64,000 nucleotides of DNA from an uncultured Gemmatimonadales bacterium (GTDB lineage Bacteria; Gemmatimonadota; Gemmatimonadetes; Gemmatimonadales; GWC2-71-9). Location: the NCBI GenBank assembly GCA_963798915.1, contig CAWCVB010000002.1, positions 288,001 through 352,000 of the forward strand, written 5' to 3'. Positions 28,356 through 52,041 of the stretch are shown here, in pieces (within the stretch, counting starts at the first letter, position 1; each line of letters opens with the position of its first letter). The notes under the pieces are model-generated. The model saw nothing but the letters and a program-made list of their open reading frames with translations. It did no database searches and was not told where the DNA came from. A program made the position numbers and the translations under genes.

Positions 28356-30854
28356 ATGAGAATTTCACTGCTGTCCCTGCTGCTCGCCTCCACACTGGCC
28401 GGTGCATTGCACGGACAGGGCGTTGCGCCGGCTGCATCAGCCAGAGCGGACGATCCCTGGCTCTGGCTGGAACCGGTCCGCTCCGACAGCGCGATGCAAT
28501 GGGTGCATGCGGAGAATGCAGTGACGCTCGCCAAGTACGCTCAGTCGCCAGCGTTCGACAGCCTCCGCGAGACGATCCGGCACGTGCTCGACTCCGACGC
28601 GCGGATTCCCTACGTCAACCGCATGGGTTCGTACCTCTACAATTTCTGGCGTGACCAGGCACATCCCCGGGGCATCTGGCGCCGCACCACGTTGGAGGAA
28701 TACCGGAAGCCGGAGCCCCGCTGGGACGTGTTGCTCGACGTGGACTCACTGGGCCGGGCTGAAGGTACCGGCTGGGTCTACCACGGCGCGCAATGCCTGG
28801 AGCCGGCGTACACCCGCTGCCTCGTCTCGCTCTCGCCCAACGGCGGCGATGCCTCGGCGGTGCGCGAATTCGACCTGACCACGCGGCGTTTCGTGGAGAA
28901 CGGTTTCACCCTGTCGGCCGCCAAGTCCCGGGTGAGCTGGATCGACCAGGATCACATCTACATCGGCACCGACTTCGGCCCCGGGTCAATGACGACGTCC
29001 AGCTATCCGCGCATCGCCAAGCGGTGGCGCCGGGGCACGCCGCTCGCCTCCGCCACGGTGGTGTATGAGGGAAAGCCGACCGACATGTCAGTCAGCGCAT
29101 ACCGCGATCGCACGCCCGGCTACCAGCGAGATTTCATCTCGGTGGCACGCGATTTCTACCACGATACACGCTATCTGCTGCAGGACGGCAAGCGCATCAA
29201 GGTGGACGTGCCCGAGGATGCCGGCGTGGATTTTCATCGGGAATGGCTGCTGCTCGAACTGCGATCATCCTGGACCACGGGCGGCCGCACCTGGCCGGCC
29301 GGGGCGTTGCTGGCGATCAAGGCGGATGCCTTCCTGGGTGGCGCGCGCGAGTTCCAGGCACTCTTCCTGCCAACCCGGCACACGTCGCTCGCGTCCCATC
29401 GCTGGACCCGGCATCACCTGATTCTCGGCTTGCTCGACGACGTCAAGAGCCGCCTGGAAGTCCTCACCCCCGGGCCAGGTGAGTGGGCCCGCGCCCCGCT
29501 GGCCGGCGCGCCGGCGTTGAGCACGGTCGGCGTGGTGGACACCGATCCGGACTCGACCGACGAGTACTGGCTCAGCGTGGAAGGGTTCCTGGCTCCGGCG
29601 GCACTCGAACGGGGCGTCCTCGACAGCGTCGAAATCGAAACCATCAAGCAGGGGCCGGCCTTCTTCGACGCGACGCCCTACGAGGTCACCCAACATTTCG
29701 TCAGCTCGAAGGACGGGACCCAGGTGCCGTACTTTCAGGTGTCAGGCAAGGGCATGCCGCTCGACGGGAGTCATCCCACGCTGCTGTTTGGCTATGGCGG
29801 CTTTGAAATTTCCGAAGTGCCGGCGTACGATGGCGTGCTTGGCCCCGCCTGGCTCGATCGAGGCGGCGTCTATGTGGTGGCCAACATCCGGGGTGGCGGC
29901 GAGTACGGCCCTGACTGGCACAACGCTGCGCTGCGTGAGCACCGCTCGCGCGCGTACGAGGATTTTGCCGCCGTGGCGCAGGACCTGGTCGATCGCGGCG
30001 TCACCACGCCGACCCACCTCGGTGCGGAAGGACGCAGCAACGGCGGCCTGCTGATGGGCAACATGTACACCCGCTGGCCCCAGCTCTTCGGCGCGATCGT
30101 CTGTGGCGTGCCGCTGCTCGACATGAAGCGCTACACGCATCTCTCCGCGGGTGCATCGTGGATCGCCGAGTATGGCGATCCCGACAAGCCGGCCGACTGG
30201 ACGTTCATCCGGACATTCTCGCCCTACCAGAACGTGCGGGCCGGCATGGACTACCCGCCCATCCTTTTCTACACCGCAACCAGCGACGACCGGGTGGGCC
30301 CGGTGCAGGCGCGGAAGATGACGGCAAAACTGCAATCCATGGGCTATGGCAACGTCTGGCTGCACGAAAACACCGAGGGTGGCCACGCTGGGTCATCCGA
30401 CAACAGCCAACTGGCCTTCCGCCGGGCGCTGACGTACCGGTTTCTGTGGGAGAAGCTGAGAGCTAAGAGACTGAGAGCCAAGGGCATTAGCTTCCGCTCC
30501 AGCGCTCAGTCCCTAATCCCTCTTCCCGCTCCAGCAACGCCTGCTTCCGCTCAATGCCCCAGCGATACCCGGCCAGGCTGCCGTCCTGCCGCACGGCGCG
30601 GTGGCAGGGCACCAGCACCGCAAGCGGGTTGCTGGCGCAGGCGTGCGCCACGGCCCGCACGGCGGATGGCCGACCGATACGACGCGCAATCTCACTGTAG
30701 GACCGGGTGCTTCCGGCCGGAATCCGGCGCAGCTCCTGCCAGACACTCTGCTGGAACGCGGTGCCCTGCATGTCGAGCGGCAGGTCGCCTCCCGTTCCGG
30801 GCCGCTCCACCGCACCCACCACCTGTGAGGCGAGCTTGGCATCGCCATGAATGA
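28356..30854 (+). CDS. Prolyl oligopeptidase family (S9A) serine peptidase; homology ends ~30460, ORF reads on into ada
   Basis: Signal peptide, DDPWLWLE, GYGGF, ANIRGGGEYG, GRSNGGLL (Ser), DDRV (Asp), GGH (His). Confidence 0.88.
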   Translation: MRISLLSLLLASTLAGALHGQGVAPAASARADDPWLWLEPVRSDSAMQWVHAENAVTLAKYAQSPAFDSLRETIRHVLDSDARIPYVNRMGSYLYNFWRDQAHPRGIWRRTTLEEYRKPEPRWDVLLDVDSLGRAEGTGWVYHGAQCLEPAYTRCLVSLSPNGGDASAVREFDLTTRRFVENGFTLSAAKSRVSWIDQDHIYIGTDFGPGSMTTSSYPRIAKRWRRGTPLASATVVYEGKPTDMSVSAYRDRTPGYQRDFISVARDFYHDTRYLLQDGKRIKVDVPEDAGVDFHREWLLLELRSSWTTGGRTWPAGALLAIKADAFLGGAREFQALFLPTRHTSLASHRWTRHHLILGLLDDVKSRLEVLTPGPGEWARAPLAGAPALSTVGVVDTDPDSTDEYWLSVEGFLAPAALERGVLDSVEIETIKQGPAFFDATPYEVTQHFVSSKDGTQVPYFQVSGKGMPLDGSHPTLLFGYGGFEISEVPAYDGVLGPAWLDRGGVYVVANIRGGGEYGPDWHNAALREHRSRAYEDFAAVAQDLVDRGVTTPTHLGAEGRSNGGLLMGNMYTRWPQLFGAIVCGVPLLDMKRYTHLSAGASWIAEYGDPDKPADWTFIRTFSPYQNVRAGMDYPPILFYTATSDDRVGPVQARKMTAKLQSMGYGNVWLHENTEGGHAGSSDNSQLAFRRALTYRFLWEKLRAKRLRAKGISFRSSAQSLIPLPAPATPASAQCPSDTRPGCRPAARRGGRAPAPQAGCWRRRAPRPARRMADRYDAQSHCRTGCFRPESGAAPARHSAGTRCPACRAAGRLPFRAAPPHPPPVRRAWHRHE

Positions 30855-31245
30855 GCTCGGCCCGCGGAAAGCGTTGATGCAGGTCGATCATCAAGGCGTC
30901 GTGGTCGTCGCCCAGCATGACGGCGCAAACGCCGAGGGTGCTCTGGGCGACCAGGATCAGGCCGAGCGACGAGGGCTTGAAGGTGAACCAGATCCTGCTC
31001 GGCTGATGAACGCCGCCAGCAACATCCTTGTCCGGCTTGCAGCGCTTGCACGGGCGGAAGCCGGCTCGCTCGGCGTCAGCCCGGGTGGGATGGAATTGCA
31101 CGTTCTCCGGGCGGGCCAGCCGAGCCGAGCACGAGGGGCGGCAGTAGACGCCCGTGGTCCGCACGGAGTAATAGAAGGTGCCGTCCGCTTCCGTGTCCCG
31201 CTCGAGAATCGCTTCCCAGCGTGGGTCCGCCATGATCTTCTGCAT
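30487..31245 (-). CDS. ada: Ada Zn-binding domain fused directly to O6-methylguanine-DNA methyltransferase (no AraC HTH)
   Basis: TTGVYCRPSC...FRPCKRC; GTAFQQSVW, SYSEIA, PCHRAV, GYRWG. Confidence 0.88.
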   Translation of the reverse strand: MQKIMADPRWEAILERDTEADGTFYYSVRTTGVYCRPSCSARLARPENVQFHPTRADAERAGFRPCKRCKPDKDVAGGVHQPSRIWFTFKPSSLGLILVAQSTLGVCAVMLGDDHDALMIDLHQRFPRAELIHGDAKLASQVVGAVERPGTGGDLPLDMQGTAFQQSVWQELRRIPAGSTRSYSEIARRIGRPSAVRAVAHACASNPLAVLVPCHRAVRQDGSLAGYRWGIERKQALLEREEGLGTERWSGS

Positions 31246-31446: not shown

Positions 31447-32970
31447 ATGACGGACGACGCCACGGCGCTCTATCAGGCCTATACCTCGCGCGACCCGCGC
31501 TTCGACGGGGTTTTCTTCATTGGAGTGACATCGACCGGGATCTACTGTCGGCCGGTGTGCACTGCGCGGACGCCCAAGCAAGCCAATTGCCGGTTTTTCC
31601 AGAGCGCGGAAGCGGCAGAAAAGGCGGCCTTCCGGCCCTGCCTCAGATGCCGGCCGGAGCTGGCTCCGGGTAACGCGCCGGTGGACGATGCGCATCGGAT
31701 CGCCGAGCTGGTGGCGCAGCGGATCGAACAAGGTGCCTTGGACAACGGGGGCGGCCTGGAAGACATCGCCCGCACTTTCGGTTGGAGTTCACGGCAGATT
31801 CGCCGGCTGGTGCACAACGAACTTGGCGTTTCGCCCATGGACCTGGTGATGACCCGTCGCCTCCTCCTGGCCAAGCAGCTGCTCACCGAGACGACGTTAC
31901 CGGTGATCGAAGTGGCATTTGCCAGCGGTTTTGCCAGTCTTCGCCGGTTCAATGATGCCTTCAGCCGACGGTATGGCATGCCTCCAACGCAATTGCGTAA
32001 GGCGGCGCGCACCGGCAAGTCGGACGTCGGTTCCAGTGAGACGCTCACGCTGCAACTCAGTTACCGGCCACCGTTTGACTGGAAGGGCCTGCTCGCGTTT
32101 CTGGCCGCGCGCGCGATTCCGGGCGTTGAAGCAGTACGGAGTGATGCTTGGTTACGCACAGTGCGCCTGGGTCAGCAGGTCGGCTGGGTGGCGGTAACGC
32201 ATGCGCCGGCCAGGCGCAGTCTGCGAGTGGAATTTTCCCACTCACTTGTGCCAGTGCTGCCTGCCCTCCTGGCCCGGATCCGGAATCTCTTTGACCTCAC
32301 CGCCAGGCCCGACCTGATCGAGGCCCATCTGGCACAGGACCCTCGCTTGCGCGACCTGGTCGCTGAAGCTCCCGGGCTTCGGGTGCCCGGCGCCTTCGAC
32401 AGCTTTGAGCTGGCGATGCGCGCCATCCTGGGCCAGCAGGTGACCGTCAAGGGCGCCACGACGCTGGCAGGACGCGTCGCCGAGGCCTTCGGAGACGCGA
32501 TCACGACACCGCATCCCGAACTCGCTCGCCTCACGCCCACAGCCGAGCGGGTTCGGGCGCTCGATGCAGCAGCGCTCGGGTCGCTTGGTATTACCGGTGC
32601 CCGTGCCCGTTGCATCATTGCCGTTGCGGACGCCATGGCCTCAGGCCGGCTCCGGCTGGACGCGGGAGCTGATCCTGAGGCGATCATTGCGGCGCTCAAG
32701 GGGCTTCCGGGAATCGGGGACTGGACCGCGCAGTACATCGCGATGCGGGCGCTGCGCTGGCCGGACGCCTTTCCCGCCGGTGACATCGCGTTGCTCAACC
32801 GGCTGGGTGTTGGCGCGAAGGAAGCGGAAACGATGTCGGAGGCGTGGCGGCCCTGGCGCAGCTATGCGGTGATGCATGTCTGGCTCGACAGGTCGGGCAA
32901 GGCGGGCAAGGCGGGCAGGACGGACGGGTTCGAGTCGAACCGTCATTCCCGCGCAAGCGGGAATCCATGA
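31447..32970 (+). CDS. alkA: AdaA-AlkA fusion: Ada Zn domain, AraC HTH, DNA-3-methyladenine glycosylase II
   Basis: YCRPVC, RPCLRCRPE, SGFASLRRFN, ILGQQV, HhH LPGIGDWTA, DAFPAGD, WRPWRSYA. Confidence 0.92.
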   Translation: MTDDATALYQAYTSRDPRFDGVFFIGVTSTGIYCRPVCTARTPKQANCRFFQSAEAAEKAAFRPCLRCRPELAPGNAPVDDAHRIAELVAQRIEQGALDNGGGLEDIARTFGWSSRQIRRLVHNELGVSPMDLVMTRRLLLAKQLLTETTLPVIEVAFASGFASLRRFNDAFSRRYGMPPTQLRKAARTGKSDVGSSETLTLQLSYRPPFDWKGLLAFLAARAIPGVEAVRSDAWLRTVRLGQQVGWVAVTHAPARRSLRVEFSHSLVPVLPALLARIRNLFDLTARPDLIEAHLAQDPRLRDLVAEAPGLRVPGAFDSFELAMRAILGQQVTVKGATTLAGRVAEAFGDAITTPHPELARLTPTAERVRALDAAALGSLGITGARARCIIAVADAMASGRLRLDAGADPEAIIAALKGLPGIGDWTAQYIAMRALRWPDAFPAGDIALLNRLGVGAKEAETMSEAWRPWRSYAVMHVWLDRSGKAGKAGRTDGFESNRHSRASGNP

Positions 32971-33141
32971 GGGCTCCCCCGGGGCATGGAGGGCCGGATG
33001 GGCAGAGGCAGGCGGTCGCGCGATCATGTCATCCTGAGCAAGCAGGGCGAGCGAAGGATCTACCTGCCCGGGTCCCGACGCTGGTCAGCAGATCCCTCGC
33101 GTTGCTCGGGATGACAAGAGGGCACGGCATGCCGTGCCCTT
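32894..33141. repeat. Repeat cluster: GGGCAAGGC nonamers, CGTC-REP (32941-32967), inverted TGTCATCC REP pair (33027-33116), GGGCACGGCATGCCGTGCCC hairpin
   Basis: Palindromes read directly; lies between convergent alkA and dinB. Confidence 0.8.
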
Positions 33142-33181
33142 AACGGCTGCCATCCACGAGCTTCGGTCCGCATGTCCGCCT

Positions 33182-33679: not shown

Positions 33680-33738
33680 GGAGGTAGGGGTCAGGGGTTA
33701 GGGACTGGGGGCTGGAGCTGTGAGTTGAGCGCCCGAGG

Positions 33739-34389
33739 CTACTTCCAACGTACCCCCGCTCGCAGCGGAAGGTACGAGAATGGAGTGGAGAGCGCGTAAG
33801 TACCCGCCTCCGCCTGGGTAAACGCATGGGCAAAGGTGAGGTCCAAGATCAGGTCCATGCGGCCTGAGACCGGCACATCGATGCCGGCACCGGCCCGCAA
33901 CCCGAGTCCGGTGCGCGAGGCGCCGAAGCTGACGACGCCGAGCCCGCCATGAATGCGGGGTTGTACCGCGCCATCGCGCAGTCGCTGTGAAATATCGAGC
34001 CAGGCAGCCCAGAGTGAAGCGGTCGGGGCGTTGGTTCGTGTCGTACCGCTCGGAATGCCCGCTTCGAGTATTACGGGGAGTGCGAGTTCTCGCTCGGGGA
34101 AGCGCCCATATTCAATTTCCGCACTGAGGGCTGTTCCTGCGCGCAGGTCGTAACCGATAGCGACCGCACCGCCCGGCCCTGGATTCCAGCGGCTGCTGAA
34201 TTCTGTGGGGTTCAGCGGGACGGCAGTGGCGGCAAGCGCGCGTACTTCGATGCGACCGGATGGCGCCTGGGCGGGGAGAATGGAAGTCATGCTGCCCAGG
34301 AGTAATGCGGTCGAGCCAAATGACATGGCGATGAGGTGAGTCACAGGATCTCCGATCCTGGGAACGACGGAATCAGAGGGAAGCTCCAT
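33739..34389 (-). CDS. Putative outer-membrane beta-barrel protein (start uncertain, possibly ~34326)
   Basis: Signal-like N-terminus, amphipathic beta strands, C-terminal PLRAGVRW. Confidence 0.55.
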   Translation of the reverse strand: MELPSDSVVPRIGDPVTHLIAMSFGSTALLLGSMTSILPAQAPSGRIEVRALAATAVPLNPTEFSSRWNPGPGGAVAIGYDLRAGTALSAEIEYGRFPERELALPVILEAGIPSGTTRTNAPTASLWAAWLDISQRLRDGAVQPRIHGGLGVVSFGASRTGLGLRAGAGIDVPVSGRMDLILDLTFAHAFTQAEAGTYALSTPFSYLPLRAGVRWK

Positions 34390-39470: not shown

Positions 39471-40234
39471 CTACCGCTTTGATCTCACGCTGAACGTGAC
39501 GCGCTGGAAGACCCGGACCCGCACGGGGACGCCGTCCAGGATTCCGGGCATGTACCGGCTGCGCATCAGGCCGTGGTATGCGACATTCGCGAAGGTTGAA
39601 TCAGTGAAGAAAAGGGCCGCGGGATATCCATCTTGCCGGCCTTGAGCAACCGGGGCTCCGCCGTGACGCGGCTGGCATCCAGCGGATCCCGGGCGGGCAC
39701 CGAGGGGATAACTGGCACAGGCGAAAGGCGGCTCGACGCCGCCGTCACAAAGAGCGCTTCTATCAGCGCGTTGGCTTCGCTGGCACTGGCATCAACCGCC
39801 CACGGCGTCGTGTCGTCCGTATCGAGAAATACCAGCTGCGGGCGCTCTGACCAGCCCGATCCCTTCCGCTTGCGCAGCACGATGAGCCAACTGCTGTCGG
39901 TGCTGTACATCGGCGGCGTGCGCAGATCGGGCACTGAGTCGCCCTCGACGCGCTGGCGGTAGCTCACCACCGCATGGGCCAGATTGATCCAGTTGGTCAA
40001 TGTGTCGGGGTCAAAGTCGGCGTGGAATGCGTGACGTGTACCGTTGTAGCCGACCGACGCCGTACCGGCCCAGAGCTGCAGCCCGTACGCAGTGTCGGCC
40101 CGGACCAGCACATTCACCGGCCCCCACGAAAATTGTCGCAGGCTGGAGTCGGCGTGCCAGGTCTGCGCCTCACAGGGCGAGACGCCAGCGAGTAGCAGCG
40201 CGGCCGCGAGCCTACCGAATCGCCGTCCGATCAT
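39471..40234 (-). pseudogene. Secreted protein with a degraded TonB C-terminal domain (frameshift ~39629, apparent internal deletion)
   Basis: After the shift it reads YPAAL-FFTDSTF..LMRSRYMPGILDGVPVRVRVFQRVTF; the central TonB_C strands are missing. Confidence 0.55.
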
Positions 40235-41154
40235 GACGGAACCTCCCTCTTCTCAATCCCCAACCCCCAACCCCCGACCCCCAACCCCTGACCCCCCATC
40301 CCGTTCACCGCCCGCATGATTCGCCCCACGGTGCCCACTTTGAGTCCGTCTTCTCGACCGGCAAAAAATCCTTCGTTGATCATCGCCTGCGAGAAATCGG
40401 TGACCTCCTGAAAACCGAGCTCCTGCAGCTCGGTGATCAGCGCCGCGGGATCGAAATAGGTCCGCCACGGTTCGCCGATTGCCTTGAGCCGGCGCCGCCG
40501 GAGCGCGAGAAGCAACCGCACCATGATGGGCTGGGTCTGGGGTGGGACAAAGTAATCGAATACGATGCCGCCACCGGTGGCCGCCGCTTGGGCCACGAAT
40601 GCAAAGGTTGCGTCAATGGCGGGACGTTCGAGATACGGTGTGACACCGAGCCAGGAAAAGAATGTGGGCGCGGCCAGGTTCAGGCCGGCGGCAACGAGCG
40701 CGTCTTCCAGGCCATGGCGCGCAAAGTCCACCGGCACGAACGGCTCGGGTGAGGGAACCGCAATATGTCCCTGCGTCAGGCGCTCGCGCTTCCAGCCCTG
40801 GGTCGCCGGATGGTCCACTTCCCAGACACGCAGCCCGGGCCAGGGATTCCGGTAGGCAAAGGTGTCGAGTCCGGCACCAAGTACTACATACTGTCGGAGT
40901 CCCTGGCTCACGAGTTCGGCGAGTGTGTCCTCCGCGATCCGGCTCCGCGCCGCCAGAAAAGCGCGAAGGAAGCGGTCCGAAACGCGATGCGCTCGGAAAT
41001 TGGGATTCCGTTCCAGGGCCCTCGCCATGTCGGGACCCAGGATCCGCAAACCCAGCGGATCGACGAAAACCGGCGGCTGGTCAAGGAGCTGGTGCGCAGC
41101 CCGGCGTGCTGCCACAAGCCAGGCGGTACGGCTGGGGGATCGGAGGGTGGTCAT
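40231..41154 (-). CDS. Class I SAM-dependent methyltransferase (LCM/TIGR00027-like)
   Basis: TAWLVAARRA, QYVVLGAGLDTFAYR, WEVDHPATQ.WK, SWLGVTPYL. Confidence 0.9.
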   Translation of the reverse strand: MTTLRSPSRTAWLVAARRAAHQLLDQPPVFVDPLGLRILGPDMARALERNPNFRAHRVSDRFLRAFLAARSRIAEDTLAELVSQGLRQYVVLGAGLDTFAYRNPWPGLRVWEVDHPATQGWKRERLTQGHIAVPSPEPFVPVDFARHGLEDALVAAGLNLAAPTFFSWLGVTPYLERPAIDATFAFVAQAAATGGGIVFDYFVPPQTQPIMVRLLLALRRRRLKAIGEPWRTYFDPAALITELQELGFQEVTDFSQAMINEGFFAGREDGLKVGTVGRIMRAVNGMGGQGLGVGGWGLGIEKREVPS

Positions 41155-41885: not shown

Positions 41886-42122
41886 AGTGGGGAATAGGGA
41901 ATGGGGAATAGGGGTTAGGGAATGGGGGTCAGGGCGGAACACTGACGCTCGTCACTCGACCCTAACCCATGGATTCCAGCTTGCGCTGGAATGACGAATG
42001 GTCAAGACTCGTGACCCGTGACCCGTGACCCGTGACCCGTGACCCGTGACCCGTGACCCGCGACCCGCGACCCGTGACCCGTGACCCGTGACTCATGACT
42101 CATGACTCATGACTCACGACCC
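41886..42122. repeat. GGGGAAT-like heptamers, a CGTC-REP (41970-41996) and a ~16-unit GTGACCC/ATGACTC heptamer array (42011-42122)
   Basis: Direct inspection. Confidence 0.9.
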
Positions 42123-42949
42123 GATTCAAAGGCATCATTCAGCGCCGCACCCGAAATCACGCCCGCCAGATGCGTGAAGCGGCCGTGCGTGGCGATTTCG
42201 GTGGCGGCATCCATGAAGGCCGCCCAGGCGGTGCGGGCCAGCGCGCCACCCACGCTGATCCGGCGCACACCCAGCTCAGCCAGTTGGCTGACGCTCGCAA
42301 AGTCGGTGCTCACCAGCACGTTTACCGGTTTGGGAGCCACTGCCCGGACCACCTCGGTAATCTGCTCCAGCCCCCTGATGCCCGGTGCGTACAGGCAATC
42401 GGCACCGGCCTCGGCGAAGGCGGTGAGCCGGCGAATGGTCTCGTCCAGGTCGGGCCGGCCGACGATGAAGCCCTCGGTACGCGCAGTCAGCAGCACGCCG
42501 GTATCGCTCTCGTCCAGCGCGCGCCGAGCGGCGCGGACCCGTGCCACGGCCAGCTCGAAGTCGAACAGGGGATTGGCGATGTCGCCAGTGGAATCCTCGA
42601 TCGACAGCCCGGCAATGCCGGTGTCCGAGGCCAGCAGCACATGCTTGGCGACATCCATCGGCTCCACTGCAAAGCCGCCTTCAAAATCCGCGTTGACCGG
42701 CACCGACACCGCCGATGCGATGGCCCTGAGATGTGCCAGGACTTCGTCGAGCGACATGCGATTGTCGGCCCGCCCGGCAGACCACGCGAACCCCGAACTG
42801 GTGGTCGCCAGCGCGGCAAACCCCAACCGCTCGAGCATCCGGGCGCTGCCCACATCCCACGGATTGGGCATGACGAAGCAGCCGGCCTGGTGCAGGGCGC
42901 GGAAGACCGCCAGCTTGTTCGATGTGATTTGGAGTCGCTCTTCCTGCAT
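42107..42949 (-). CDS. Isocitrate lyase/PEP mutase family protein
   Basis: MPNPWDVGSAR, LATTSSG, VNADFEGGF, SIED, AGADCLYAPG, RRISVGG. Confidence 0.9.
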   Translation of the reverse strand: MQEERLQITSNKLAVFRALHQAGCFVMPNPWDVGSARMLERLGFAALATTSSGFAWSAGRADNRMSLDEVLAHLRAIASAVSVPVNADFEGGFAVEPMDVAKHVLLASDTGIAGLSIEDSTGDIANPLFDFELAVARVRAARRALDESDTGVLLTARTEGFIVGRPDLDETIRRLTAFAEAGADCLYAPGIRGLEQITEVVRAVAPKPVNVLVSTDFASVSQLAELGVRRISVGGALARTAWAAFMDAATEIATHGRFTHLAGVISGAALNDAFESGRES

Positions 42950-43076
42950 GCCTGCCTCGGGTTCTGGGGACGGCTCGGCGGCTTGGCGAGCTTCGGCCTG
43001 CCCATTCCGCCGCCCCGCACATTCTGCCGCTGATCCTCTGGCGTCAAGGCGCCGCGTCCAGCGGTGGCCGATGCCG

Positions 43077-43119
43077 GGTCCGGATCCGGCGAGCGGATGG
43101 GCGGCCGCCCGACCAGATT
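43077..43119 (+). promoter_or_regulatory. Box C + -10-like: GGTCCGGATCCGGCGAG-N20-CAGATT
   Basis: Same geometry as box B, including a start codon (GTG 43126) 7 nt after the hexamer. Confidence 0.55.
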
Positions 43120-43125
43120 ATCCGG

Positions 43126-44649
43126 GTGACCAGCATGCCGACTGACATTCCGTTCCCGCTATCGGGGCTCACGCCCGACGCCTGCGTGCGCGCGCTGGCC
43201 GCTCGGGATCCCCGCTTTGACGGGCTCTTCTTCGTGGGCATCACGTCCACCCGGATCTACTGCCGGCCCGTGTGTCCGGCGCGAGTTTCGCACACCGATC
43301 GCCGGCGGTTCTTCCAGTCGCCGGCCGCGGCGGAACAGGCCGGTTACCGCCCATGCCTCCGGTGCCGGCCCGAACTGGCGCCCGGCCGAGCCCCGGTGGA
43401 TGCGGTGTCCCGGCTGGGCGCGGCGGCAGCCCGCCGCATCGAATCAGGCGCACTCAACGGGCACAGCGTCACTGAACTCGCCAAAACGCTCGGCGTCAGC
43501 GCCCGGCATCTGCGGCGCGCGCTCGATCGCGAGTACGGCGTGTCTCCCAGCGAACTGGCACAGACCTACCGCCTGCTGCTGGCCAAGCGGCTGCTGGCCG
43601 ACACCGCGCTCCCGGTCACAAGAATCGCCTTTGCCAGCGGGTTCCAGAGTCTTCGCCGGTTCAATGCCGCGTTCCGGGAACAATACCGGATGTCGCCCAG
43701 TTCGCTTCGTCGCGCACCCCATCCGAACGGTCGGCAGGAAGGCAGCGACGCTCAACTGCTCGATGATGCGCTGCACCTGACGCTGGCCTATCGGTCGCCC
43801 TTCGACTGGCGCGGCCTGCTGGCGGTGCTGGCGCGCGATGCGATTCCTGGCGTCGAATCGGTGTCAGGCGATTCATACAGCCGGACCGTTCGGCTGGATG
43901 GACACACCGGTTTCCTGACGGCGCGCGACGGCGATGGCCATCTCATCGTCCACATCTCCGCCTCGCTGGTTCCGGTGCTGATGCCGCTCCTGCCCGGGCT
44001 CCGGCGTCTGTTCGATCTTGACGCCGAACCGCTGGTCATCGACGACCACCTGGCGCGCACCGATCTCGCGCCGCTGGTGCAGCAGCGGCCAGGCGTGCGG
44101 CTGCCCGGAACCATCGATCCATTCGAGGTGGCGTTGGGCGTGATCTCGAGAGAGGGCAGTGCCCCGGGGAAGCGCTTGGCCCTGCTGCAGAGAATGATGG
44201 AGACGCTGGGTGATTCTTTTTCGGCGGGAGCACCCGACTTGCAATGGCTGGCGCCGAGCGCGGCGGTGGTGGCCCGAACGTCGTTGGCGGGACTCACGAG
44301 TGCCGGGCTTGACGATGCGGCCGGCAGGACCCTGCTGCGCGTGGCTCAACGAATGGCGGAGGGGTCCCTGTTGCTGGATGCCGGCGCTGATCCGGTTGCG
44401 GCACAGGCCGGGCTCACTGATGCGGGTGCGAGCGATGAGACGGCGACCCGGATCGTCATGCGGGCCCTCTACTGGCCTGACGCCTTTCCCGCCAGCAACC
44501 CCGCGCTGCTTGCGCGCACCGAGCCCTGGCGTCCGTGGCGGGCGTATGGTGCGACCCACCTGTGGCTGGCCCGAGGCGAGCGGCGCCGGCTGCGCCGCTC
44601 AGCCGATGGGCCGGCATTACGCCGCCAGCCGCAGCGCGGACTCGCCTGA
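43126..44649 (+). CDS. AdaA-AlkA paralog with intact Ada/AraC domains and a degenerate glycosylase domain
   Basis: YCRPVC, RPCLRCRPE and SGFQSLRRFN intact; GQQ motif and HhH GIG lost; DAFPASN instead of DAFPAGD. Confidence 0.85.
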   Translation: MTSMPTDIPFPLSGLTPDACVRALAARDPRFDGLFFVGITSTRIYCRPVCPARVSHTDRRRFFQSPAAAEQAGYRPCLRCRPELAPGRAPVDAVSRLGAAAARRIESGALNGHSVTELAKTLGVSARHLRRALDREYGVSPSELAQTYRLLLAKRLLADTALPVTRIAFASGFQSLRRFNAAFREQYRMSPSSLRRAPHPNGRQEGSDAQLLDDALHLTLAYRSPFDWRGLLAVLARDAIPGVESVSGDSYSRTVRLDGHTGFLTARDGDGHLIVHISASLVPVLMPLLPGLRRLFDLDAEPLVIDDHLARTDLAPLVQQRPGVRLPGTIDPFEVALGVISREGSAPGKRLALLQRMMETLGDSFSAGAPDLQWLAPSAAVVARTSLAGLTSAGLDDAAGRTLLRVAQRMAEGSLLLDAGADPVAAQAGLTDAGASDETATRIVMRALYWPDAFPASNPALLARTEPWRPWRAYGATHLWLARGERRRLRRSADGPALRRQPQRGLA

Positions 44650-45048
44650 CCAGCTGCGAGCCGGAAGCCGCCGCCACCGGGCGACGGCCACAGCTGCGGA
44701 AGCGATGCCGACGACGCCGGGCGTCAGCGCCTGAATTCCACCACCGATGGCCAGCGTGACACCGACGGCTCCACTCATGATGATCACCAGCCCGGCGGCG
44801 GCAAGCGGCGTCAGCTCCTGGCGGATGCGCAGCAGCCCCGGAAGGATGAGCCCAAGGGCGCCGAGTACCTCGACCACACCGATGAAGCGGAGGAAGCCGC
44901 CCGGCATCGGGATCTGCTGGGTGATGGCGGCGATCGGCATCACGAGCTTCATCCCGCCGGCAAAGAGAAAGAGGGCGGCCAGCAGGCCCTGAATGGTCCA
45001 CAGTGCGACAGCGGACTTGCGGCCGGTCGGCCGAGCGGGATTTGACAT
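44617..45048 (-). CDS. DoxX family membrane protein
   Basis: LWTIQGLLAALFLFAGGMKL, FIGVVEVLGALGLILPGL, LTPLAAAGL. Confidence 0.88.
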   Translation of the reverse strand: MSNPARPTGRKSAVALWTIQGLLAALFLFAGGMKLVMPIAAITQQIPMPGGFLRFIGVVEVLGALGLILPGLLRIRQELTPLAAAGLVIIMSGAVGVTLAIGGGIQALTPGVVGIASAAVAVARWRRLPARSWSGESALRLAA

Positions 45049-45119
45049 GGCGACGTCTCCTTCGGAGGACAGGTTGGGAGCCGCATGTCGGGCGACGGCC
45101 GCCCGGCGCATTGCCGGCT

Positions 45120-45668
45120 CTACCTGTACGTCGAAGGAGCCGGAGCGGAATCGACATGGCGCCGGAACACGATGTCGAACACCGTGCTCCAGGTCTTCCC
45201 GTCGTCAGCCGACCGCTCGGCTTTCTCCCTGACCGCGGCACCATCCTTCCACCAGACCGCCCGAATCAAAGTGGTGGAACCGTCGGGCCGGTGTTCCGGT
45301 GCAGTCAGCACCATTCGGCCATCCTTCAGGCCGCCTTCCAGTAGCAGCAGTGAGCCCCGGTTGGTGACCCAGCTCTGGTGCCACACGTTCCGGCTCGCGT
45401 CAAAAGTGCTGAAGCTCTCTCCCCGCAGGCCGTCGCGCTGCTCATAGACTTCGCGCAGGGCACAGCCGTCCACCATCGGGGTGACATGGTTCCGTGCCAC
45501 CACCGAGTCGGGCTCGGCTACGTCGTAGGTATCCCAGTCTCCAGCGAAGAAGTCGAACTGGTGGTATTCCGGCGCCCGGCATGCGGGCGCGGACTCGCGC
45601 TGCGACTGGCCGTGGGCCGTCATGCATGACGCAAGCAGTGTCACAACGACCACTCGGGGAAAGCGCAC
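45120..45668 (-). CDS. Secreted beta-barrel protein (DUF1579-like)
   Basis: Signal peptide; C..PEYHQFDFFAGDW, WHQSWV, ERSADDGKTW. Confidence 0.7.
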   Translation of the reverse strand: MRFPRVVVVTLLASCMTAHGQSQRESAPACRAPEYHQFDFFAGDWDTYDVAEPDSVVARNHVTPMVDGCALREVYEQRDGLRGESFSTFDASRNVWHQSWVTNRGSLLLLEGGLKDGRMVLTAPEHRPDGSTTLIRAVWWKDGAAVREKAERSADDGKTWSTVFDIVFRRHVDSAPAPSTYR

Positions 45669-45722: not shown

Positions 45723-45764
45723 ATTATACGGCATCAGTGGACATCCGCTGGCCGCATGCGGACC
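45723..45764 (-). promoter_or_regulatory. Box E + -10: GGTCCGCATGCGGCCAG-N19-TATAAT
   Basis: 14/17 identical to box C; perfect -10 hexamer. Confidence 0.55.
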
Positions 45765-45796: not shown

Positions 45797-45839
45797 CGTC
45801 CGGATGCGGCGTGCTGCGGGGGGACGCGAGTGCTAGGGT
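45797..45839 (+). promoter_or_regulatory. Box D + -10: CGTCCGGATGCGGCGTG-N20-TAGGGT
   Basis: 14/17 identical to box C; same 20-nt spacing. Confidence 0.55.
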
Positions 45840-45904
45840 GTGCCAGGCGACGGAGCGTATGCGTGACGATCCGCGCGCTCCCCTTTCACTTTCTGGAGGA
45901 AGCA

Positions 45905-47107
45905 ATGCGCACCCTCGTATTCGCAGCCCTGATTGCCGGCGTGAGCGCCTGCGGTCGCGGCACCGATCTGACCCGCCCACTGGACGCCAGTGCCAAGCTC
46001 AGCACACTGCAGTATCAGGTCGTGAAGTACCCGGCATCACTTGGCGGCACCCAGAGCCGGGGCATGGCCATCAGCAATCAGGGACTGGTGGCCGGCTGGT
46101 CCAATCTCTTTGGCGGCGGCGCCCGTCACGCGGTCATATGGCGTGACGGCGTGCTCACTGATCTCGGCACGCTCGGCACCGGCAGCGGCCTGAGCAGCAC
46201 CGTACCCTGGCCCGGGCTCAACAACAATGGGATGGTGGTCGGCATCTCGCAGACGGATGACATCGATCCGCTGGACGAGAGCTGGAGCTGCGAGGAAGGC
46301 GGCTTCTTTCCCAACGGCGGCACCAACCTGGTGTGCCGAGGATTCGTGTGGCAGGATGGCGTGATGCAGGCCTTGCCCACCTTCGGCGGCACCCACGGGT
46401 TTGCCACCGCGGTCAACAACCAGGGTAAGGTGGTGGGCTGGGCGGAGAACACGGTACACGATCCGACCTGCCTGGCGCCGCAGGTGCTGCAGTTCCGGGC
46501 GGCGATGTGGACGCCCAGGTCAGGCGCCATCACCGAGCTGCCGCCCTATCCGGGCGACTCGACCTCGGCCGCCACCGCCATCAACCAGCAGGGTCAGGCG
46601 GTGGGCATCTCCGGTGATTGCGACATCGCCGTGGGCCGGTTCAGTGCAAAGCACGCGGTATTGTGGGATCACGGCCAGGTGCAGGAGGTTCCCAACCTGG
46701 GCGGCACCACCTGGCACACGCCGATGGACATCAACGACTCGGGCGTAGTGGTCGGGTTTTCCAATCCGGTGGGCGCAGGCGATCCCGAGGGCGAGTTCAT
46801 TGCCCATGCCTTCCGCTGGACCGGCGGCGACACGGCAGAGGATCTCGGCACGCTCGAAGGCGACGGCTACAGCGAGGCATTCGCGGTCAACGCCCGCGGC
46901 CAGGTCGTGGGTGTGTCGTTCGGCGGCGCCGCCGGCGCCCGTGCATTTCTGTTCGAGGACGGCGTCATGCACAACCTGAATGACCTGGTGGACTCGGATG
47001 ACGTCCTGCTCTCGGCGCAGGATATCAATGACGCCGGCCAGATCACCGGACGCCTGCTCGATCATGTGAGCGGTGAAACGGTGATGTTTGTGGCGACGCC
47101 GAAATAG
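45905..47107 (+). CDS. HAF-family extracellular repeat lipoprotein
   Basis: GGAGGA RBS; VSAC lipobox; DLGTLG, AVNNQGKVVG, HAFRW repeats. Confidence 0.85.
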   Translation: MRTLVFAALIAGVSACGRGTDLTRPLDASAKLSTLQYQVVKYPASLGGTQSRGMAISNQGLVAGWSNLFGGGARHAVIWRDGVLTDLGTLGTGSGLSSTVPWPGLNNNGMVVGISQTDDIDPLDESWSCEEGGFFPNGGTNLVCRGFVWQDGVMQALPTFGGTHGFATAVNNQGKVVGWAENTVHDPTCLAPQVLQFRAAMWTPRSGAITELPPYPGDSTSAATAINQQGQAVGISGDCDIAVGRFSAKHAVLWDHGQVQEVPNLGGTTWHTPMDINDSGVVVGFSNPVGAGDPEGEFIAHAFRWTGGDTAEDLGTLEGDGYSEAFAVNARGQVVGVSFGGAAGARAFLFEDGVMHNLNDLVDSDDVLLSAQDINDAGQITGRLLDHVSGETVMFVATPK

Positions 47108-47319: not shown

Positions 47320-48813
47320 TCACACCCTGACTTGAATCCCCTTCCACTTCCCCTGGTTGAATCGCAGCACGCTCAGCAGGCAGCGGGTCATGTGGCCGGC
47401 CAGGATCGCGAGCCAGATGTGGAGCGGCCGGAGCGTGCCGGTCTGCTGGATCACGAAGCAGATGCTGAGCGGGACCACGACCTGCGAAATGATCGAGATC
47501 CAGAGCGGGCTCTTGGTGTCGCCGGTGCCCTGCAGGCCGCCGGTGTAGGTAAGCGCCACCGAGATGAAGAAGCCTGAGAGACTCAGCACCCGGAGCAGTT
47601 GCACGCCGATCTCGACCACGGCGGGTTCATCCATGCCGAAGACCGCCAGCAGCTGCCGAGGAAAGAAGAAGAAGAAGAAGCCGACGAAGGCCGCCAGCGT
47701 CATGCCCAGCCGAGCGGCAACATGCACGCCTTCGCTGGCCCGCTCCGGCTGGCGCGCGCCAAGGTTCTGGCCGGCGACGGCAGCGGCGGCGCCCATGAGC
47801 CCGACCGACGTCCAGGTGATGAAGGAGAACAACTGCGAATAGGACACGGAGAACGCCGCCTGCGCCGCGGCGCTCTGGGCCAGCGAGCCGATAAATGACA
47901 GCATGAGCACGCCACCCACGTTCATGGCAATGCCCTGAACGCCGGTCGGCAGGCCGAAGCGGAACAGTTCGCGGATGATGGCCCAGTCAGGCCGGTATCC
48001 ATGTCCCCGCGGGAAGGCGACGACCCAGTCGCCCCGCCAGAGCTTTACCATGGCGTAGATGGAGATGAGGCCGGTAGCGGCGACCGTGCCCATGGCGGCA
48101 CCCGCCGTGCGAAAGGCCGGGATCGGTCCCAGTCCCCGGATCAGGACCACGTTGAAGAGGATGTTGAGCGCCGTCATCACGATGCCGAGCACCATCGGAG
48201 TCCGGGCGTCGCCGGCCGAGCGCAGTGCACCGCCCAGCATGAAGAAGACCAGCATCCCGAAGCTGAACACGAACATGATGCGGAGGTACGGCAGCGCTTC
48301 GACCTGCACGTTGGGTGCGGCATTGACGAAGTTGAGCAGCGAGGGCGCGAGGAAGTAGCCGACCGGCGCCATGATGAGCAGCGCCATGGCCGCGGCGGTC
48401 AGGAACGCCTGGTAGACGGTGCGGTTCACCTTGTCCTCATTGCCCTCGCCGGCAAAGCGCGCCACCAGCACGCTCATGCCGGTGAAGATCGAGGCAATGA
48501 AGATGATGACGACGATCATGAGCTGGGATGAGACGCCGATGGCGGCGTTGCCCTCGAAGCCCACGATGTGCCCCACCATGATCTGGTCCACCAGGCCCTG
48601 AAGTCCGCCCACGATGTTGACCAGCATGGTGGGCCAGGCAAGCCGCCAGACGGCCGATGACAGGGGACCGTCAATAATGGACCGGTCAAAGCGTCGCCCG
48701 GTCCGGACCGGCATTGGCTGCGGCGCGCCGACGGCCTGGGCGGGCGCGGCGCTTTCGGCCGCGGGATCCGCAGCGGCTTCGTCCGCAGCTTCGGAGGCGG
48801 GTTCCTGGCTCAT
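47320..48813 (-). CDS. MATE family efflux transporter
   Basis: LAWPTM, LRSAGDARTPM, GAAMGT, GQNLGA, LQGTGDTKSP; about 12 TM segments. Confidence 0.92.
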   Translation of the reverse strand: MSQEPASEAADEAAADPAAESAAPAQAVGAPQPMPVRTGRRFDRSIIDGPLSSAVWRLAWPTMLVNIVGGLQGLVDQIMVGHIVGFEGNAAIGVSSQLMIVVIIFIASIFTGMSVLVARFAGEGNEDKVNRTVYQAFLTAAAMALLIMAPVGYFLAPSLLNFVNAAPNVQVEALPYLRIMFVFSFGMLVFFMLGGALRSAGDARTPMVLGIVMTALNILFNVVLIRGLGPIPAFRTAGAAMGTVAATGLISIYAMVKLWRGDWVVAFPRGHGYRPDWAIIRELFRFGLPTGVQGIAMNVGGVLMLSFIGSLAQSAAAQAAFSVSYSQLFSFITWTSVGLMGAAAAVAGQNLGARQPERASEGVHVAARLGMTLAAFVGFFFFFFPRQLLAVFGMDEPAVVEIGVQLLRVLSLSGFFISVALTYTGGLQGTGDTKSPLWISIISQVVVPLSICFVIQQTGTLRPLHIWLAILAGHMTRCLLSVLRFNQGKWKGIQVRV

Positions 48814-50378
48814 GCGGCAACTGCCGGGCTCATGTCGCGTTCCACCAGGTAGTCCCCGGGTTCAGTTGCGTCGTGCCCCCGCGGGGTGCCGGCGAACTGC
48901 ATGAGTGCGGTGCCGGCGCTCGCCACGGCAAGATTGACGATCACGGCGTAGAGTGCTGCGTAGCCCGGCACGATGATGCCACCCAGATGAAGAGGGAAGA
49001 CTGAACTCTGAAAATGCTGCGCGGCCGCCATGGCGGTGCCGACCGCCATCCCCGCGATCCAGCCCGCCACCAGCGCCCGACCGTGGAACCAGCGGGTGAA
49101 CAGTCCCACCACAATGGCTGGCAGCGTCTGGATGATCCAGATGCCGCCCAGCAGCTGCAGCTGGATGGCGTATTCGGTGGGCAGGAAGAGGATGAACGCA
49201 AGCGCACCCACTTTTACCACCAGTGAGACCAGCTTGGCTGTCTGCGCCTCGCCCGGCCCGCTCAGCGAACGGCGAAACCAGCCGCGCCAGATGTTGCGGG
49301 TGAAGAGGTTGGCGGCGGCGATGGACATGATGGCCGCCGGCACCAGCGCGCCGATTGCGATGGCCGCGAACGCCACACCCACGAACCAGCTGGGAAACTG
49401 ATCGAGAAAGAGCGCTGGTACGGCAAAGTTGGCTCCGTACCGATCGAACCACCCGGCATAGGCGGGGTTGGCCTGCACCTGCGCCGCGACCGCCATGTAT
49501 CCCAGCAGCGCAATCAGCGCCAGCACCACGGAATAGGCGGGCAGCAGCGCCATGTTGTGCCGCACGACGCTCCGGCTCCTGGCGCTGAGCAGTCCCGTGA
49601 CAGCGTGCGGATACAGGAAGAGCGCCACCGCCGAGCCGAGGGCAAGGGTGATGTAGGCGCTGGCATTGCCGGGGCCGCTCGCGGACGGCATCGTGAGCAG
49701 CAGTTTCTCGCGCGGCACTGCGCCGAAGATGGCGCCAAAGCCACCCAGGCGCGCGGGGATGATCACCACGGCGGCAATCACCGTGACATAGATGAGCAGG
49801 TCCTTGACCAGGGCGATCAGTGCCGGCGCACGAAGCCCGGAGCTGTAGGTGTAGGCCGCCAGCACGCCGAAGGCGATGATCAGCGGCAGGTCGCGCATCA
49901 GGCCGGTGCCGTGGAAGCCCAGCCCCGCGATCACCACTTCGATGCCCACCAGTTGCAGCGCGATGTACGGCATGGTGGCAATGATGCCGGTGATGGCCAC
50001 CGCCAGTGCCAGCGTCGGGCTGCCGAATCGGGCGGCCACGAAGTCGGCCACCGTGATGTAGCCGCGCCGGTGCGACACCGACCAGAGCCGGGGAAAGACC
50101 AGAAAGACGAAGGGATAGACCAGCAGGGTGTAGGGCACTGCAAAGAAGCCGATGGCGCCGGCGCCGTAGACCAGCGCCGGCACCGCCACCAGCGTGTAAG
50201 CCGTATAAAGATCGCCGCCCAGCAGGAACCAGGTCACCACCGTGCCAAAGCGACGGCCGGCCAGGCCCCATTCGTCGAGCCGGGCGAGGTCGCCCCGCCG
50301 CCACCGGGACGCGACGAAGCCGAGCACGGTGACGAGCCCGAAGAGCAGGAGGAAGACCGTCGTGGCGGGCCAGTTCAT
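48810..50378 (-). CDS. mctP: Sodium:solute symporter, MctP-like monocarboxylate permease
   Basis: EWGLAGRRFG..VTWFLLGGDLYTAYT, ATMPYIALQL, ALVPAAIMSIAAANLF. Confidence 0.85.
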   Translation of the reverse strand: MNWPATTVFLLLFGLVTVLGFVASRWRRGDLARLDEWGLAGRRFGTVVTWFLLGGDLYTAYTLVAVPALVYGAGAIGFFAVPYTLLVYPFVFLVFPRLWSVSHRRGYITVADFVAARFGSPTLALAVAITGIIATMPYIALQLVGIEVVIAGLGFHGTGLMRDLPLIIAFGVLAAYTYSSGLRAPALIALVKDLLIYVTVIAAVVIIPARLGGFGAIFGAVPREKLLLTMPSASGPGNASAYITLALGSAVALFLYPHAVTGLLSARSRSVVRHNMALLPAYSVVLALIALLGYMAVAAQVQANPAYAGWFDRYGANFAVPALFLDQFPSWFVGVAFAAIAIGALVPAAIMSIAAANLFTRNIWRGWFRRSLSGPGEAQTAKLVSLVVKVGALAFILFLPTEYAIQLQLLGGIWIIQTLPAIVVGLFTRWFHGRALVAGWIAGMAVGTAMAAAQHFQSSVFPLHLGGIIVPGYAALYAVIVNLAVASAGTALMQFAGTPRGHDATEPGDYLVERDMSPAVAA

Positions 50379-50383
50379 GGGGT

Positions 50384-50490
50384 CACGAAAGCACGAAAAT
50401 ACGAAAGCACGAAAGAGTCGTGGGTCGTGGGTCATGGGTCATGAGTGACGCATTCACGGCACAGGGCTCATGACTCACGACCCACGACTC
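50384..50490. repeat. CACGAAAG octamers plus inverted GTCGTGG/CCACGAC heptamer arrays
   Basis: Inserted between DUF3311 and mctP; the arms form a hairpin. Confidence 0.75.
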
Positions 50491-50491
50491 C

Positions 50492-50693
50492 CTAGACATC
50501 CAGCCGATACGCAATTGCCACGGCCACCGCGCTCGCACCGATCCAGGCAATCTGGAACCAGTAGAAAAAGGGAATGCCGGCGATGGCCGGGTCCAGCGCG
50601 GTTGTAGAGCGGCACCCAGAGCGACACCAGCACCACGGCGGCAAACAGGAGATAGACCAGGCGCCGCCGAGCCCGCATGCGGCCCGGCTTCAT
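50492..50693 (-). CDS. DUF3311 small membrane protein, 1-nt frameshift near 50597
   Basis: WVPLYNR + LDPAIAGIPFFYWFQ after removing one base; usual MctP partner. Confidence 0.8.
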
Positions 50694-51964: not shown

Positions 51965-52041
51965 GAGGGTCAACGGTCGTCAGACGCCGGCCGACAGTCA
52001 ACGGCTCGTCAGGACGGCCAGGGCCTAACGGCGCGACCCTC

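Follow-up and report, generated by a model that had tools for sequence, protein, structure and literature searches.

A Gemmatimonadales AdaA-AlkA paralog with a degenerate glycosylase domain as a putative Ada-type regulator

What does a fusion of an alkylation sensor and a DNA glycosylase do once the residues for base excision are gone? The question is raised by alkA2, a gene in a 64,000-nucleotide stretch of DNA (hereafter the window; C2:288001-352000, contig CAWCVB010000002.1) from the 3.3-Mb, 85% complete genome of an uncultured Gemmatimonadales bacterium of soil or sediment. AdaA-AlkA fusions are known from Mycobacterium tuberculosis (Rv1317c), Xanthomonas (ada-alkA) and Deinococcus (AdaA-AlkA), as described in parts of two reports (PMC6300522, PMC518961). 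The alkA2 protein is of equal length and has the same four-part architecture (Ada Zn-Cys4, AraC-type helix-turn-helix (HTH), AlkA_N and a helix-hairpin-helix (HhH)-GPD fold), but it lacks the canonical catalytic residues, lies behind a different promoter box and has different neighbors. We conclude, at a probability of roughly 60%, that the product of alkA2 is a transcription factor of the Ada type: an activator that senses methylation, has a non-catalytic pseudo-glycosylase domain and controls a regulon outside DNA repair. The parts of this reading differ in strength: that the protein is not an AlkA-type glycosylase we hold with high confidence, that it is a regulator that would act at its own box subtype with good confidence, and that methylation is its signal with moderate confidence. 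A first, sequence-only reading had already proposed a pure sensor-regulator, and we infer the same role. The gene, its parts and its canonical paralog are as follows.

43126..44649, + strand: alkA2, AdaA(Zn)-AraC-AlkA_N-degenerate HhH-GPD-like protein of 507 amino acids (aa); GTG start, uninterrupted frame
43183..43374, + strand: Ada_Zn_binding domain (residues 20-83, Pfam)
43477..43713, + strand: AraC-type double HTH, HTH_18 (residues 118-196, Pfam)
43777..44118, + strand: AlkA_N domain (residues 218-331, Pfam)
44119..44580, + strand: degenerate HhH-GPD-like (pseudo-glycosylase) domain (residues 332-485; AlkA fold predicted)
44497..44499, + strand: codon of N458, the residue in the alignment column of catalytic D238 (E. 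coli AlkA)
31447..32970, + strand: alkA1, canonical AdaA-AlkA of 507 aa; all catalytic motifs, HhH-GPD match

Degeneration of the AlkA domain across a clade

The sensor half of the alkA2 protein matches Ada_Zn_binding (PF02805; 87.7 bits, cut-off 23) and HTH_18 (PF12833; 85.8 bits, cut-off 33.6). Its zinc-ligand cysteines (C46, C50, C77 and C80) are invariant across 31 clade members, and they correspond to C38, C42, C69 and C72 of Ada because residues 15-88 align without gaps to residues 7-80 of N-Ada. The retention of the zinc- and methyl-accepting cysteines and of the AraC-type HTH, as read from the letters of the DNA, is thus borne out by family matches and by cysteine spacing, and the full-length, stop-free frame is there in all its 507 codons. 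The GTG start is homologous to ATG or GTG starts in same-genus orthologs. Past about residue 485 the C-terminal tail is unconserved among orthologs.

AlkA_N is also recognized (PF06029; 112.4 bits), and no Pfam match to HhH-GPD (PF00730) appears at E ≤ 0.01. Against the AlkA equivalog NF007641 the alkA2 protein scores 92.5 bits, short of the cut-off of 229; the alkA1 protein, at 213.1 bits, also falls below the cut-off yet far above its paralog. The alkA1 gene lies twelve kilobases upstream and its product carries the same three domains plus HhH-GPD. The two proteins are 49% identical over 481 residues (BLASTP), and their alignment displays all three replacements that the sequence-only reading had listed: GQQ to REG, LPGIGDWTA to A-GASDETA and DAFPAGD to DAFPASN.

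To place these changes on the enzyme, the E. coli K-12 AlkA translation (annotated record, L027:6693-7541:-) was placed in a MAFFT alignment with 249 full-length homologs. The earlier residue mapping proved correct, because N458 of the alkA2 protein (P0001), D446 of the alkA1 protein (P0002) and D238 of E. coli AlkA share one column. In a HMMER alignment to AlkA chains the 'PAGD' aspartate of alkA1 falls on the second aspartate of 'LPDD'. The wedge columns (G123, Q124 and L125 in E. coli numbering) are gaps in the alkA2 protein, the hairpin reads G-A-S instead of G-I-G, and further changes in the same numbering are G216 to S, W218 to E, Y222 to R and R22 to D, the last falling on residue 238 of the protein's own numbering. 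The alkA1 protein retains R22, the wedge, G216, W218, Y222 and D238. In parts of one report (PMC1874660), W218, D238 and W272 form the active-site triad of AlkA, D238 is catalytic and L125 intercalates at the flipped nucleotide. The alkA2 protein resembles E. coli AlkA (3-methyladenine DNA glycosylase II; PDB 1mpg, 1diz) in its AlkA_N domain and helical HhH-GPD fold, but differs from it in carrying Asn for Asp238, Glu for Trp218, Arg for Tyr222 and Asp for Arg22 and in lacking the Leu125 wedge loop. The D238N change reportedly inactivates the E. coli enzyme, a result ascribed to structure papers of 1996; an open-access literature search for it returned unrelated papers only. Many clade proteins are named just 'AlkA N-terminal domain-containing protein' by the NCBI pipeline, which fits the absence from the alkA2 protein of catalytic Asp238, wedge G123-Q124-L125, W218, Y222 and R22.

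These losses extend well beyond one strain. Among the best 120 matches in 5.8 billion proteins (55-66% identity), 119 have no precomputed HhH-GPD domain. The canonical residues R22, G123, Q124, G214, G216, W218, Y222, D238 and W272 are kept in 86 of the 249 aligned homologs. Q124 and W218 are gone in all 122 Gemmatimonadales-type rows (two of them the window's own protein), and in each of them the wedge loop either has been deleted or is not conserved. The R22 position is D or E in 96/122 rows, the Y222 position M, T, A or R in at least 92/122, and W218 has become R in 86, with T219 changed to L. Asp238 is retained in 109/122 rows and replaced by A in 7, N in 4 and G in 2. The suggestion that Asn and the HhH loss might mark a conserved clade thus holds in part: the wedge GQQ, W218, T219, Y222 and R22 are lost clade-wide, but Asn is no clade character, Asp238 having been lost (to N, A or G) in sublineages only, the window's own included.

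The clade itself is well supported. In a FastTree of 239 rows, 125 all-degenerate rows are parted from the 114 others by a branch with support 100, and an IQ-TREE of 85 rows, built with the diagnostic columns removed, recovers the same degenerate clade at 100*, nested among canonical forms; the canonical Gemmatimonadales paralogs form a clade of their own (99*). The window's protein lies in a starred FastTree subclade of 20 rows, 11 of which have lost the aspartate. The alkA2-type gene occurs in 9 of 61 related genomes, spread over three genera of one family. Species-representative genomes contributed 80 loci, of which 19 are degenerate; at eleven diagnostic positions the 61 others read RGQQGGWTYDW or something close to it, except for L068 (divergent) and L077 (truncated). 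The alkA2 form is not strain-specific decay.

Degenerate sequences are also scattered among canonical ones in the IQ-TREE, where starred branches force at least five origins. The P0192 cluster and about 20 other representatives have degenerate wedge, HhH or Asp motifs and belong to several unrelated lineages, and one degenerate 90%-identity cluster, which carries the annotation 'glycosylase 2 family protein', has members named for Pseudomonas aeruginosa and Bradyrhizobium diazoefficiens. A 503-aa protein (P0127), sister to the degenerate clade (99*), has lost the wedge GQQ motif and kept LPGIGAWTA and the catalytic Asp; it looks like a possible intermediate stage of glycosylase decay. At three loci (L033, L044 and L050) an alkA2-type gene with a divergent HAF gene and typical boxes sits on metagenome-assembled genomes labelled Thermoanaerobaculia or Anaeromyxobacteraceae, owing either to mis-binning or to transfer out of Gemmatimonadota.

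Fold and selection in the C-terminal half

The degenerate domain is predicted to keep the AlkA fold. An AlphaFold2 model from 31 clade members (mean predicted local distance difference test score 77.3) has E. coli AlkA as its best PDB matches; the overlay on 1mpg_A (Foldseek E 1.8e-15; template modelling score 0.68, AlkA-normalised; 282 columns) gives the structural agreement that had been suggested as a check. The N-terminus of the model matches N-Ada/DNA complexes, and phmmer relates the alkA2 protein to E. coli AlkA at E 1e-23. Near-invariant in the clade are the residues of the fold (the DLD motif, PG-R-PG, F333, G362, P377, G394, WPDA and WRPWR-Y). Sixteen columns of the C-terminal half are also clade-conserved with a residue rare in canonical proteins (e.g., M286, P287, G313, G386, R416 and T441). 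A predicted homodimer of this half scored 0.02 against a mark of 0.42 and bears on none of the readings.

Nei-Gojobori (NG86) ratios of nonsynonymous to synonymous substitution (dN/dS) were calculated for the five closest alkA2 pairs (dS 0.31-0.78); pairs with dS above about 0.75 were otherwise left out because domain values became erratic. The alkA2 pairs gave 0.25-0.35 in the AlkA-like half and 0.02-0.08 in the sensor/HTH half, compared with 0.13-0.20 and 0.00-0.07 in canonical Gemmatimonadales pairs (dS 0.19-0.73), values that are indicative only. An outlier canonical pair (L018-L087) gave 0.25 in the AlkA-like half and 0.20 in the sensor/HTH half. The C-terminal half is thus relaxed about twofold and still far from neutral. 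The most conserved part of the protein is the Zn-Cys4 domain, at 0.00-0.11 in the five closest pairs.

These ratios bear on whether alkA2 is a decaying paralog, its C-terminal half drifting neutrally and the gene heading for loss. Motifs do vary between sublineages, and dN in the C-terminal half is about 4 to 14 times that in the N-terminal half. However, the ratio stays within about twofold of the canonical copies, the fold-core residues are invariant, no full-length clade member examined has an interrupted frame (full length is kept by more than 120 clusters at 90% identity) and the clade covers several genera. Purifying selection is found in every domain, so the objection from strain-specific neutral decay, which the sequence-only reading had raised against itself, fails; the losses are clade-wide and dN/dS lies well below 1. 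We regard decay as extremely improbable.

The same selection, on a domain with conserved residues of its own and a retained AlkA fold, would suit a protein that is still bifunctional, an active glycosylase, or another enzyme that processes DNA, with its active site remodelled and its substrate changed. Such an enzyme could also draw on the residues kept by most of the clade, Asp238 together with the first HhH glycine (G214, 121/122) and W272 (91/122). Set against these are the Asn in the window's own protein and the loss of Asp in over half of its subclade, a wedge gone from every clade row, the replacement of W218, the loss of Y222 and R22, and the missing Pfam HhH-GPD match, on which grounds we consider continued catalysis an improbable explanation.

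A different use of the domain is somewhat easier to entertain, if still unlikely: the dead domain as an input module that binds, uncut, damaged DNA, a damaged base or nucleoside, or some other small ligand and gates the AraC output with or without Cys methylation. AraC-family regulators commonly join a ligand-binding domain to a double HTH, clade-specific residues are under selection around the former pocket (R22 to D/E, W218 to R, T219 to L), and similar degenerations recur in the unrelated lineages noted above. Yet none of the results points to a ligand, and the pocket positions vary by sublineage (W218 becomes R, E, A or H). No other part of the protein is as conserved as the Zn-Cys4 domain, which argues that the main input still comes through the Ada-type switch.

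In the sensor/HTH half, seventeen columns hardly vary within the clade and hold residues that canonical proteins seldom have, several of them (Q174, R166, H148 and E134-R135) in or near the HTH helices. Such a pattern would fit a changed DNA specificity.

Putative operator subtypes and the genes behind them

The clade has a promoter box of its own. This box (subtype 2), GTCCGRATSYGGCGAG, is 16 nt long and lies 19-21 nt upstream of -10-like hexamers, and the canonical paralogs carry GTCCGAAAATGGCTAG (subtype 1). Both contain GTCCG-N5-GGC and differ in the central five bases, AAAAT or AAAAC in 17/17 canonical loci versus RATSY in alkA2 loci. All 17 canonical Gemmatimonadales loci have a GTCCGAAAA(T/C)GGCTAG-like box upstream of the start by 45-61 nt (by 48 nt at 11 loci), and because each of them carries this other subtype we take the two subtypes to be real. 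The boxes of the window, with the gene divergent from alkA1, are listed below.

43078..43093, + strand: subtype-2 box of alkA2, GTCCGGATCCGGCGAG; perfect match
45798..45813, + strand: subtype-2 box of the HAF promoter; 1 mismatch; TAGGGT 20 nt downstream (45834-45839)
45748..45763, - strand: subtype-2 box facing orf182-DoxX, inverted; 2 mismatches; perfect TATAAT 19 nt downstream (45723-45728)
31400-31415: subtype-1 box of alkA1, GTCCGGAAATGGCTAG
31315-31330, - strand: subtype-1 box facing the Ada-Ogt gene, GTCCGAAAATGGCGAG
30487..31245, - strand: Ada_Zn_binding plus Ogt-type methyltransferase gene, 252 aa, divergent from alkA1

A -10-like CAGATT (43114-43119) follows the alkA2 box by 20 nt, and the start codon comes about 6 nt further on. 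This arrangement recurs. Upstream DNA could be used at 22 loci; at 15 of them the 120 nt before the alkA2-type gene hold a box with at most 2 mismatches, and 4 more have a 3-mismatch box in the same place, among them three same-genus orthologs that share GTCCGCTTCCGGCCAG. A box abutting the -35 position is therefore kept in 19/22 loci, as an autoregulated promoter would have it, and the protein would be expected to bind there. TAnnnT occurs at +19 to +21 after 20 of 30 tabulated boxes. In most loci the start codon of the alkA2-type gene is only 6-9 nt past the hexamer (17 nt in L037), which suggests leaderless transcripts. Like E. coli Ada, the alkA2 protein joins a Zn-Cys4 domain with a Cys38 equivalent (C46) to an AraC HTH and has a box abutting its own -35 region; it differs from Ada in having no C-terminal O6-methylguanine methyltransferase, a putative regulon with no repair gene and a box unrelated to AAAGCGCA. 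In Ada, according to parts of one report, self-methylation of Cys-38 activates transcription (PMC3788762).

Scanning the whole genome returned one perfect subtype-2 box (at 43078) and five 1-mismatch sites, against 0 in a 1.5-Mb Markov simulation. Boxes with 2 mismatches were at background (46 in the genome, 25 per 1.5 Mb simulated), and a genome-wide regulon drawn from the box was rejected, only the 0- and 1-mismatch classes exceeding the Markov-1 simulation. Besides the HAF box, the 1-mismatch sites (C1:185049, C16:12524, C2:585340 and C6:305735) lie mostly within open reading frames (ORFs). A match to the E. coli-type Ada box AAAGCGCA at 45660-45667, within the first orf182 codons, was set aside as chance (2 in the window, 1.64 expected). 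In two other genomes short repeats stand upstream of the alkA2 box: six tandem 7-nt units GCCTTAA just upstream of it in G004 (L113:~480-530) and a run of CCCCACG/CCCTACG-like units at the matching place in G006 (L114), both absent from the window.

The genes around alkA2 and behind its box subtype are these.

45905..47107, + strand: HAF-repeat protein (TIGR02913, DUF3466), from the likely start ATG 45905 within ORF 45830-47107; GGAGGA ribosome-binding site precedes
45120..45668, - strand: orf182, signal-peptide-bearing; no Pfam family even at E ≤ 5
44617..45111, - strand: DoxX_2 membrane protein, on the strand of orf182 and downstream of it
42107-42949, - strand: PEP_mutase family gene (253 bits)
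40231-41154, - strand: LCM-family methyltransferase, unrelated to the Ogt type

Of the neighbors named from sequence, DoxX, HAF and PEP-mutase stand by family matches; 'DUF1579-like', given to orf182, does not, since the label has no Pfam match and is an ESM Atlas lead only (score 0.96 to a cluster of which 14% of members have PF07617). The observation that the HAF and orf182 promoters share the box subtype of alkA2, distinct from that of alkA1, holds, with boxes at 45798 and 45748, and so does the lack of a methyltransferase neighbor, there being no Ogt-type gene nearby. From ATG 45905 the HAF protein begins, judged by eye, with a lipoprotein-like signal and a lipobox.

The neighborhood is partly conserved, in line with the sequence-only reading. 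By tblastn counts, a HAF gene adjoins 8/19 degenerate and 0/61 canonical loci, and an Ogt-type gene adjoins 21/61 canonical and 0/19 degenerate loci. HAF is linked in 12 of 24 alkA2-type loci, including the window, G004 (with the gene order of the window), G009 and G024, and is arranged divergently, in tandem upstream, in tandem downstream or 1.2 kb away. At seven loci an alkA2-type gene and HAF diverge from a 160-230-bp spacer with two inverted copies of GTCCGRATSYGGCGAG, one per gene. Unlinked HAF orthologs have the box as well: that of G006 has GTCCGGAACCGGCGTG 20 nt before TACCCT, and that of G007 a GATA-type variant that matches the variant before G007's own alkA2. With the window HAF as query (E ≤ 1e-40), orthologs of 64-80% identity were found in two of five further alkA2 genomes (G006 and G007), a paralog of 41% identity was all that G001 yielded, and none was found in any of five alkA2-less relatives. 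This pattern is no more than supportive, since these genomes are related and not all of them are complete. Boxes also stand before an orf182 homolog in G009 (perfect box) and a DUF4440/SnoaL-like protein in G024 (1-mismatch box, TACGAT at +20). None of the box-fronted genes (HAF, orf182, DUF4440/SnoaL-like) is a DNA-repair gene. DUF4440/SnoaL-like proteins, that of G024 among them, accompany an alkA2-type gene in two other genera (L111:9860-10373, + strand; L110:11046-11765, + strand).

Could alkA2 be a target and not a regulator, with a canonical Ada or AlkA1 binding both subtypes and alkA2, HAF and orf182 belonging to an ordinary Ada regulon? GTCCG-N5-GGC and the -10 spacing are common to both subtypes, and the HAF-side box of L033 reads GTCCGGAAATGGCGAG, which is subtype-1-like. 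Moreover, the alkA2 type is never alone in the tested genomes, since another Ada_Zn_binding gene is present in 5/5 including the window's: the four that lack a canonical AdaA-AlkA each have a second Ada_Zn_binding frame, 523 aa long in G003 and 361-386 aa long in the other three. But the central bases differ consistently between subtypes, the box variants co-vary with the alkA2 lineage, unlinked HAF included (GATA-type in G003 and G007), and the DNA-binding half has its seventeen near-invariant clade columns and dN/dS of 0.02-0.08. Such constraint is hard to reconcile with a protein that has no DNA-binding job, and we consider target-only status quite unlikely. In the window's 252-aa Ada-Zn/Ogt protein the domains are joined directly, with no counterpart of the AraC HTH that intervenes in E. 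coli Ada; its match to the Ada equivalog comes in two stretches and reaches 290 bits, where the cut-off is 345.

A proposed course of paralog specialisation

We propose that a duplicated AdaA-AlkA became specialised by keeping the methyl-accepting Zn-Cys4 switch and the AraC output while its operator preference shifted. The alkA2 protein would bind the subtype-2 box as Ada binds its own box beside the -35 region, would be switched on by methyl transfer to Cys46, the equivalent of Ada Cys38, and would then activate its own leaderless transcript and a small regulon of envelope or secreted proteins unrelated to DNA repair. The repair regulon would be left to alkA1, or to a classical Ada in other genomes, through the sister box GTCCGAAAATGGCTAG. 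On this account the autoregulated promoter was acquired or kept and the glycosylase function dropped, probably stepwise: the wedge first, then the HhH Trp and the pocket residues, and in some sublineages, the window's among them, the Asp. Pseudoenzyme domains are found in regulators, where an enzyme fold is still selected after catalytic loss and is joined to a DNA-binding output. The dead domain may likewise be retained for a structural or sensing role; possible candidates are sensing of damaged bases or other ligands, a scaffold for the N-terminal half and a non-catalytic contact with DNA. More tentatively, and with less conviction than we give to the regulator itself, Ada-type AlkA domains may have turned repeatedly into sensing or scaffold modules, of which the Gemmatimonadales case would be the largest, giving a second alkylation or electrophile regulon with its own operator code and, in place of DNA repair, envelope or secreted outputs such as the HAF-repeat lipoprotein and the DUF1579- and DUF4440-like proteins.

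Several points weigh against the regulator proposed here. We infer glycosylase loss, box binding and methyl sensing alike, and with Asp238, G214 and W272 mostly kept, residual or altered activity is conceivable in the wider clade. The dN/dS pairs are few, related and hence non-independent, and come from genes rich in GC at third codon positions. Three loci (L031, L039 and L043) among the 22 whose upstream sequence could be used show no box. Counts of 1-mismatch boxes across whole genomes cannot discriminate, being 0-4 in each alkA2-less genome and 0-5 in alkA2 genomes, and the GTCCG-N5-GGC common to both subtypes leaves room for canonical Ada-type proteins to bind subtype-2 boxes as well. HAF is unlinked in the other 12/24 loci, several of which end within a kilobase of the alkA2-type gene, and the window query found no HAF ortholog in the regulator-bearing G003 (79% complete) and G019 (99% complete). 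Finally, we know of no rationale that links alkylation stress to a HAF lipoprotein.

Annotation and gene counts routinely treat AdaA-AlkA fusions as 3-methyladenine glycosylases; in the large, selected clade described here the glycosylase part probably cannot work as AlkA does. Annotation of these genes as glycosylases would consequently inflate the base-excision-repair capacity credited to Gemmatimonadota and, apparently, to scattered lineages of other phyla. The two paralogs also offer a natural case of specialisation in a one-component damage sensor, with two operator subtypes and non-overlapping gene sets. If a methyl-Cys switch does drive the HAF lipoprotein and small secreted proteins, alkylation stress would be tied to the cell envelope, outside the textbook adaptive response, and the uncharacterised HAF/DUF3466 family would gain its first regulatory context. 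On the more tentative reading of repeated conversion, the adaptive-response sensor would be a general sensor of methylating agents with outputs beyond genome maintenance, and many 'AlkA N-terminal domain-containing' proteins of other phyla, some from Pseudomonas aeruginosa and Bradyrhizobium included, would be regulators and not repair enzymes. An open-access literature search, with subscription journals outside its reach, found no glycosylase-dead Ada-type regulator, its operator or its HAF link.

Some minor features complete the neighborhood. At their 3' ends alkA2 and DoxX share 33 nt (44617-44649). A 347-aa ORF (42102-43145, + strand) that overlaps the alkA2 start has no family, runs antisense to the PEP-mutase gene and is in all likelihood spurious. 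No Pfam family matches the ORFs at 39566-40234, 33134-33799 and 33739-34389, even at E ≤ 5. A second HAF-repeat paralog (20-853, - strand; 37% identity over 295 residues) has its promoter at or outside the window edge. Downstream of MatE lie a MctP-type monocarboxylate permease (737 bits, above cut-off) and an extracytoplasmic function (ECF) sigma factor with DUF6596 (48810-50435 and 50690-51973, both on the - strand), and the HAF-MatE-MctP-ECF block is syntenic in G004.

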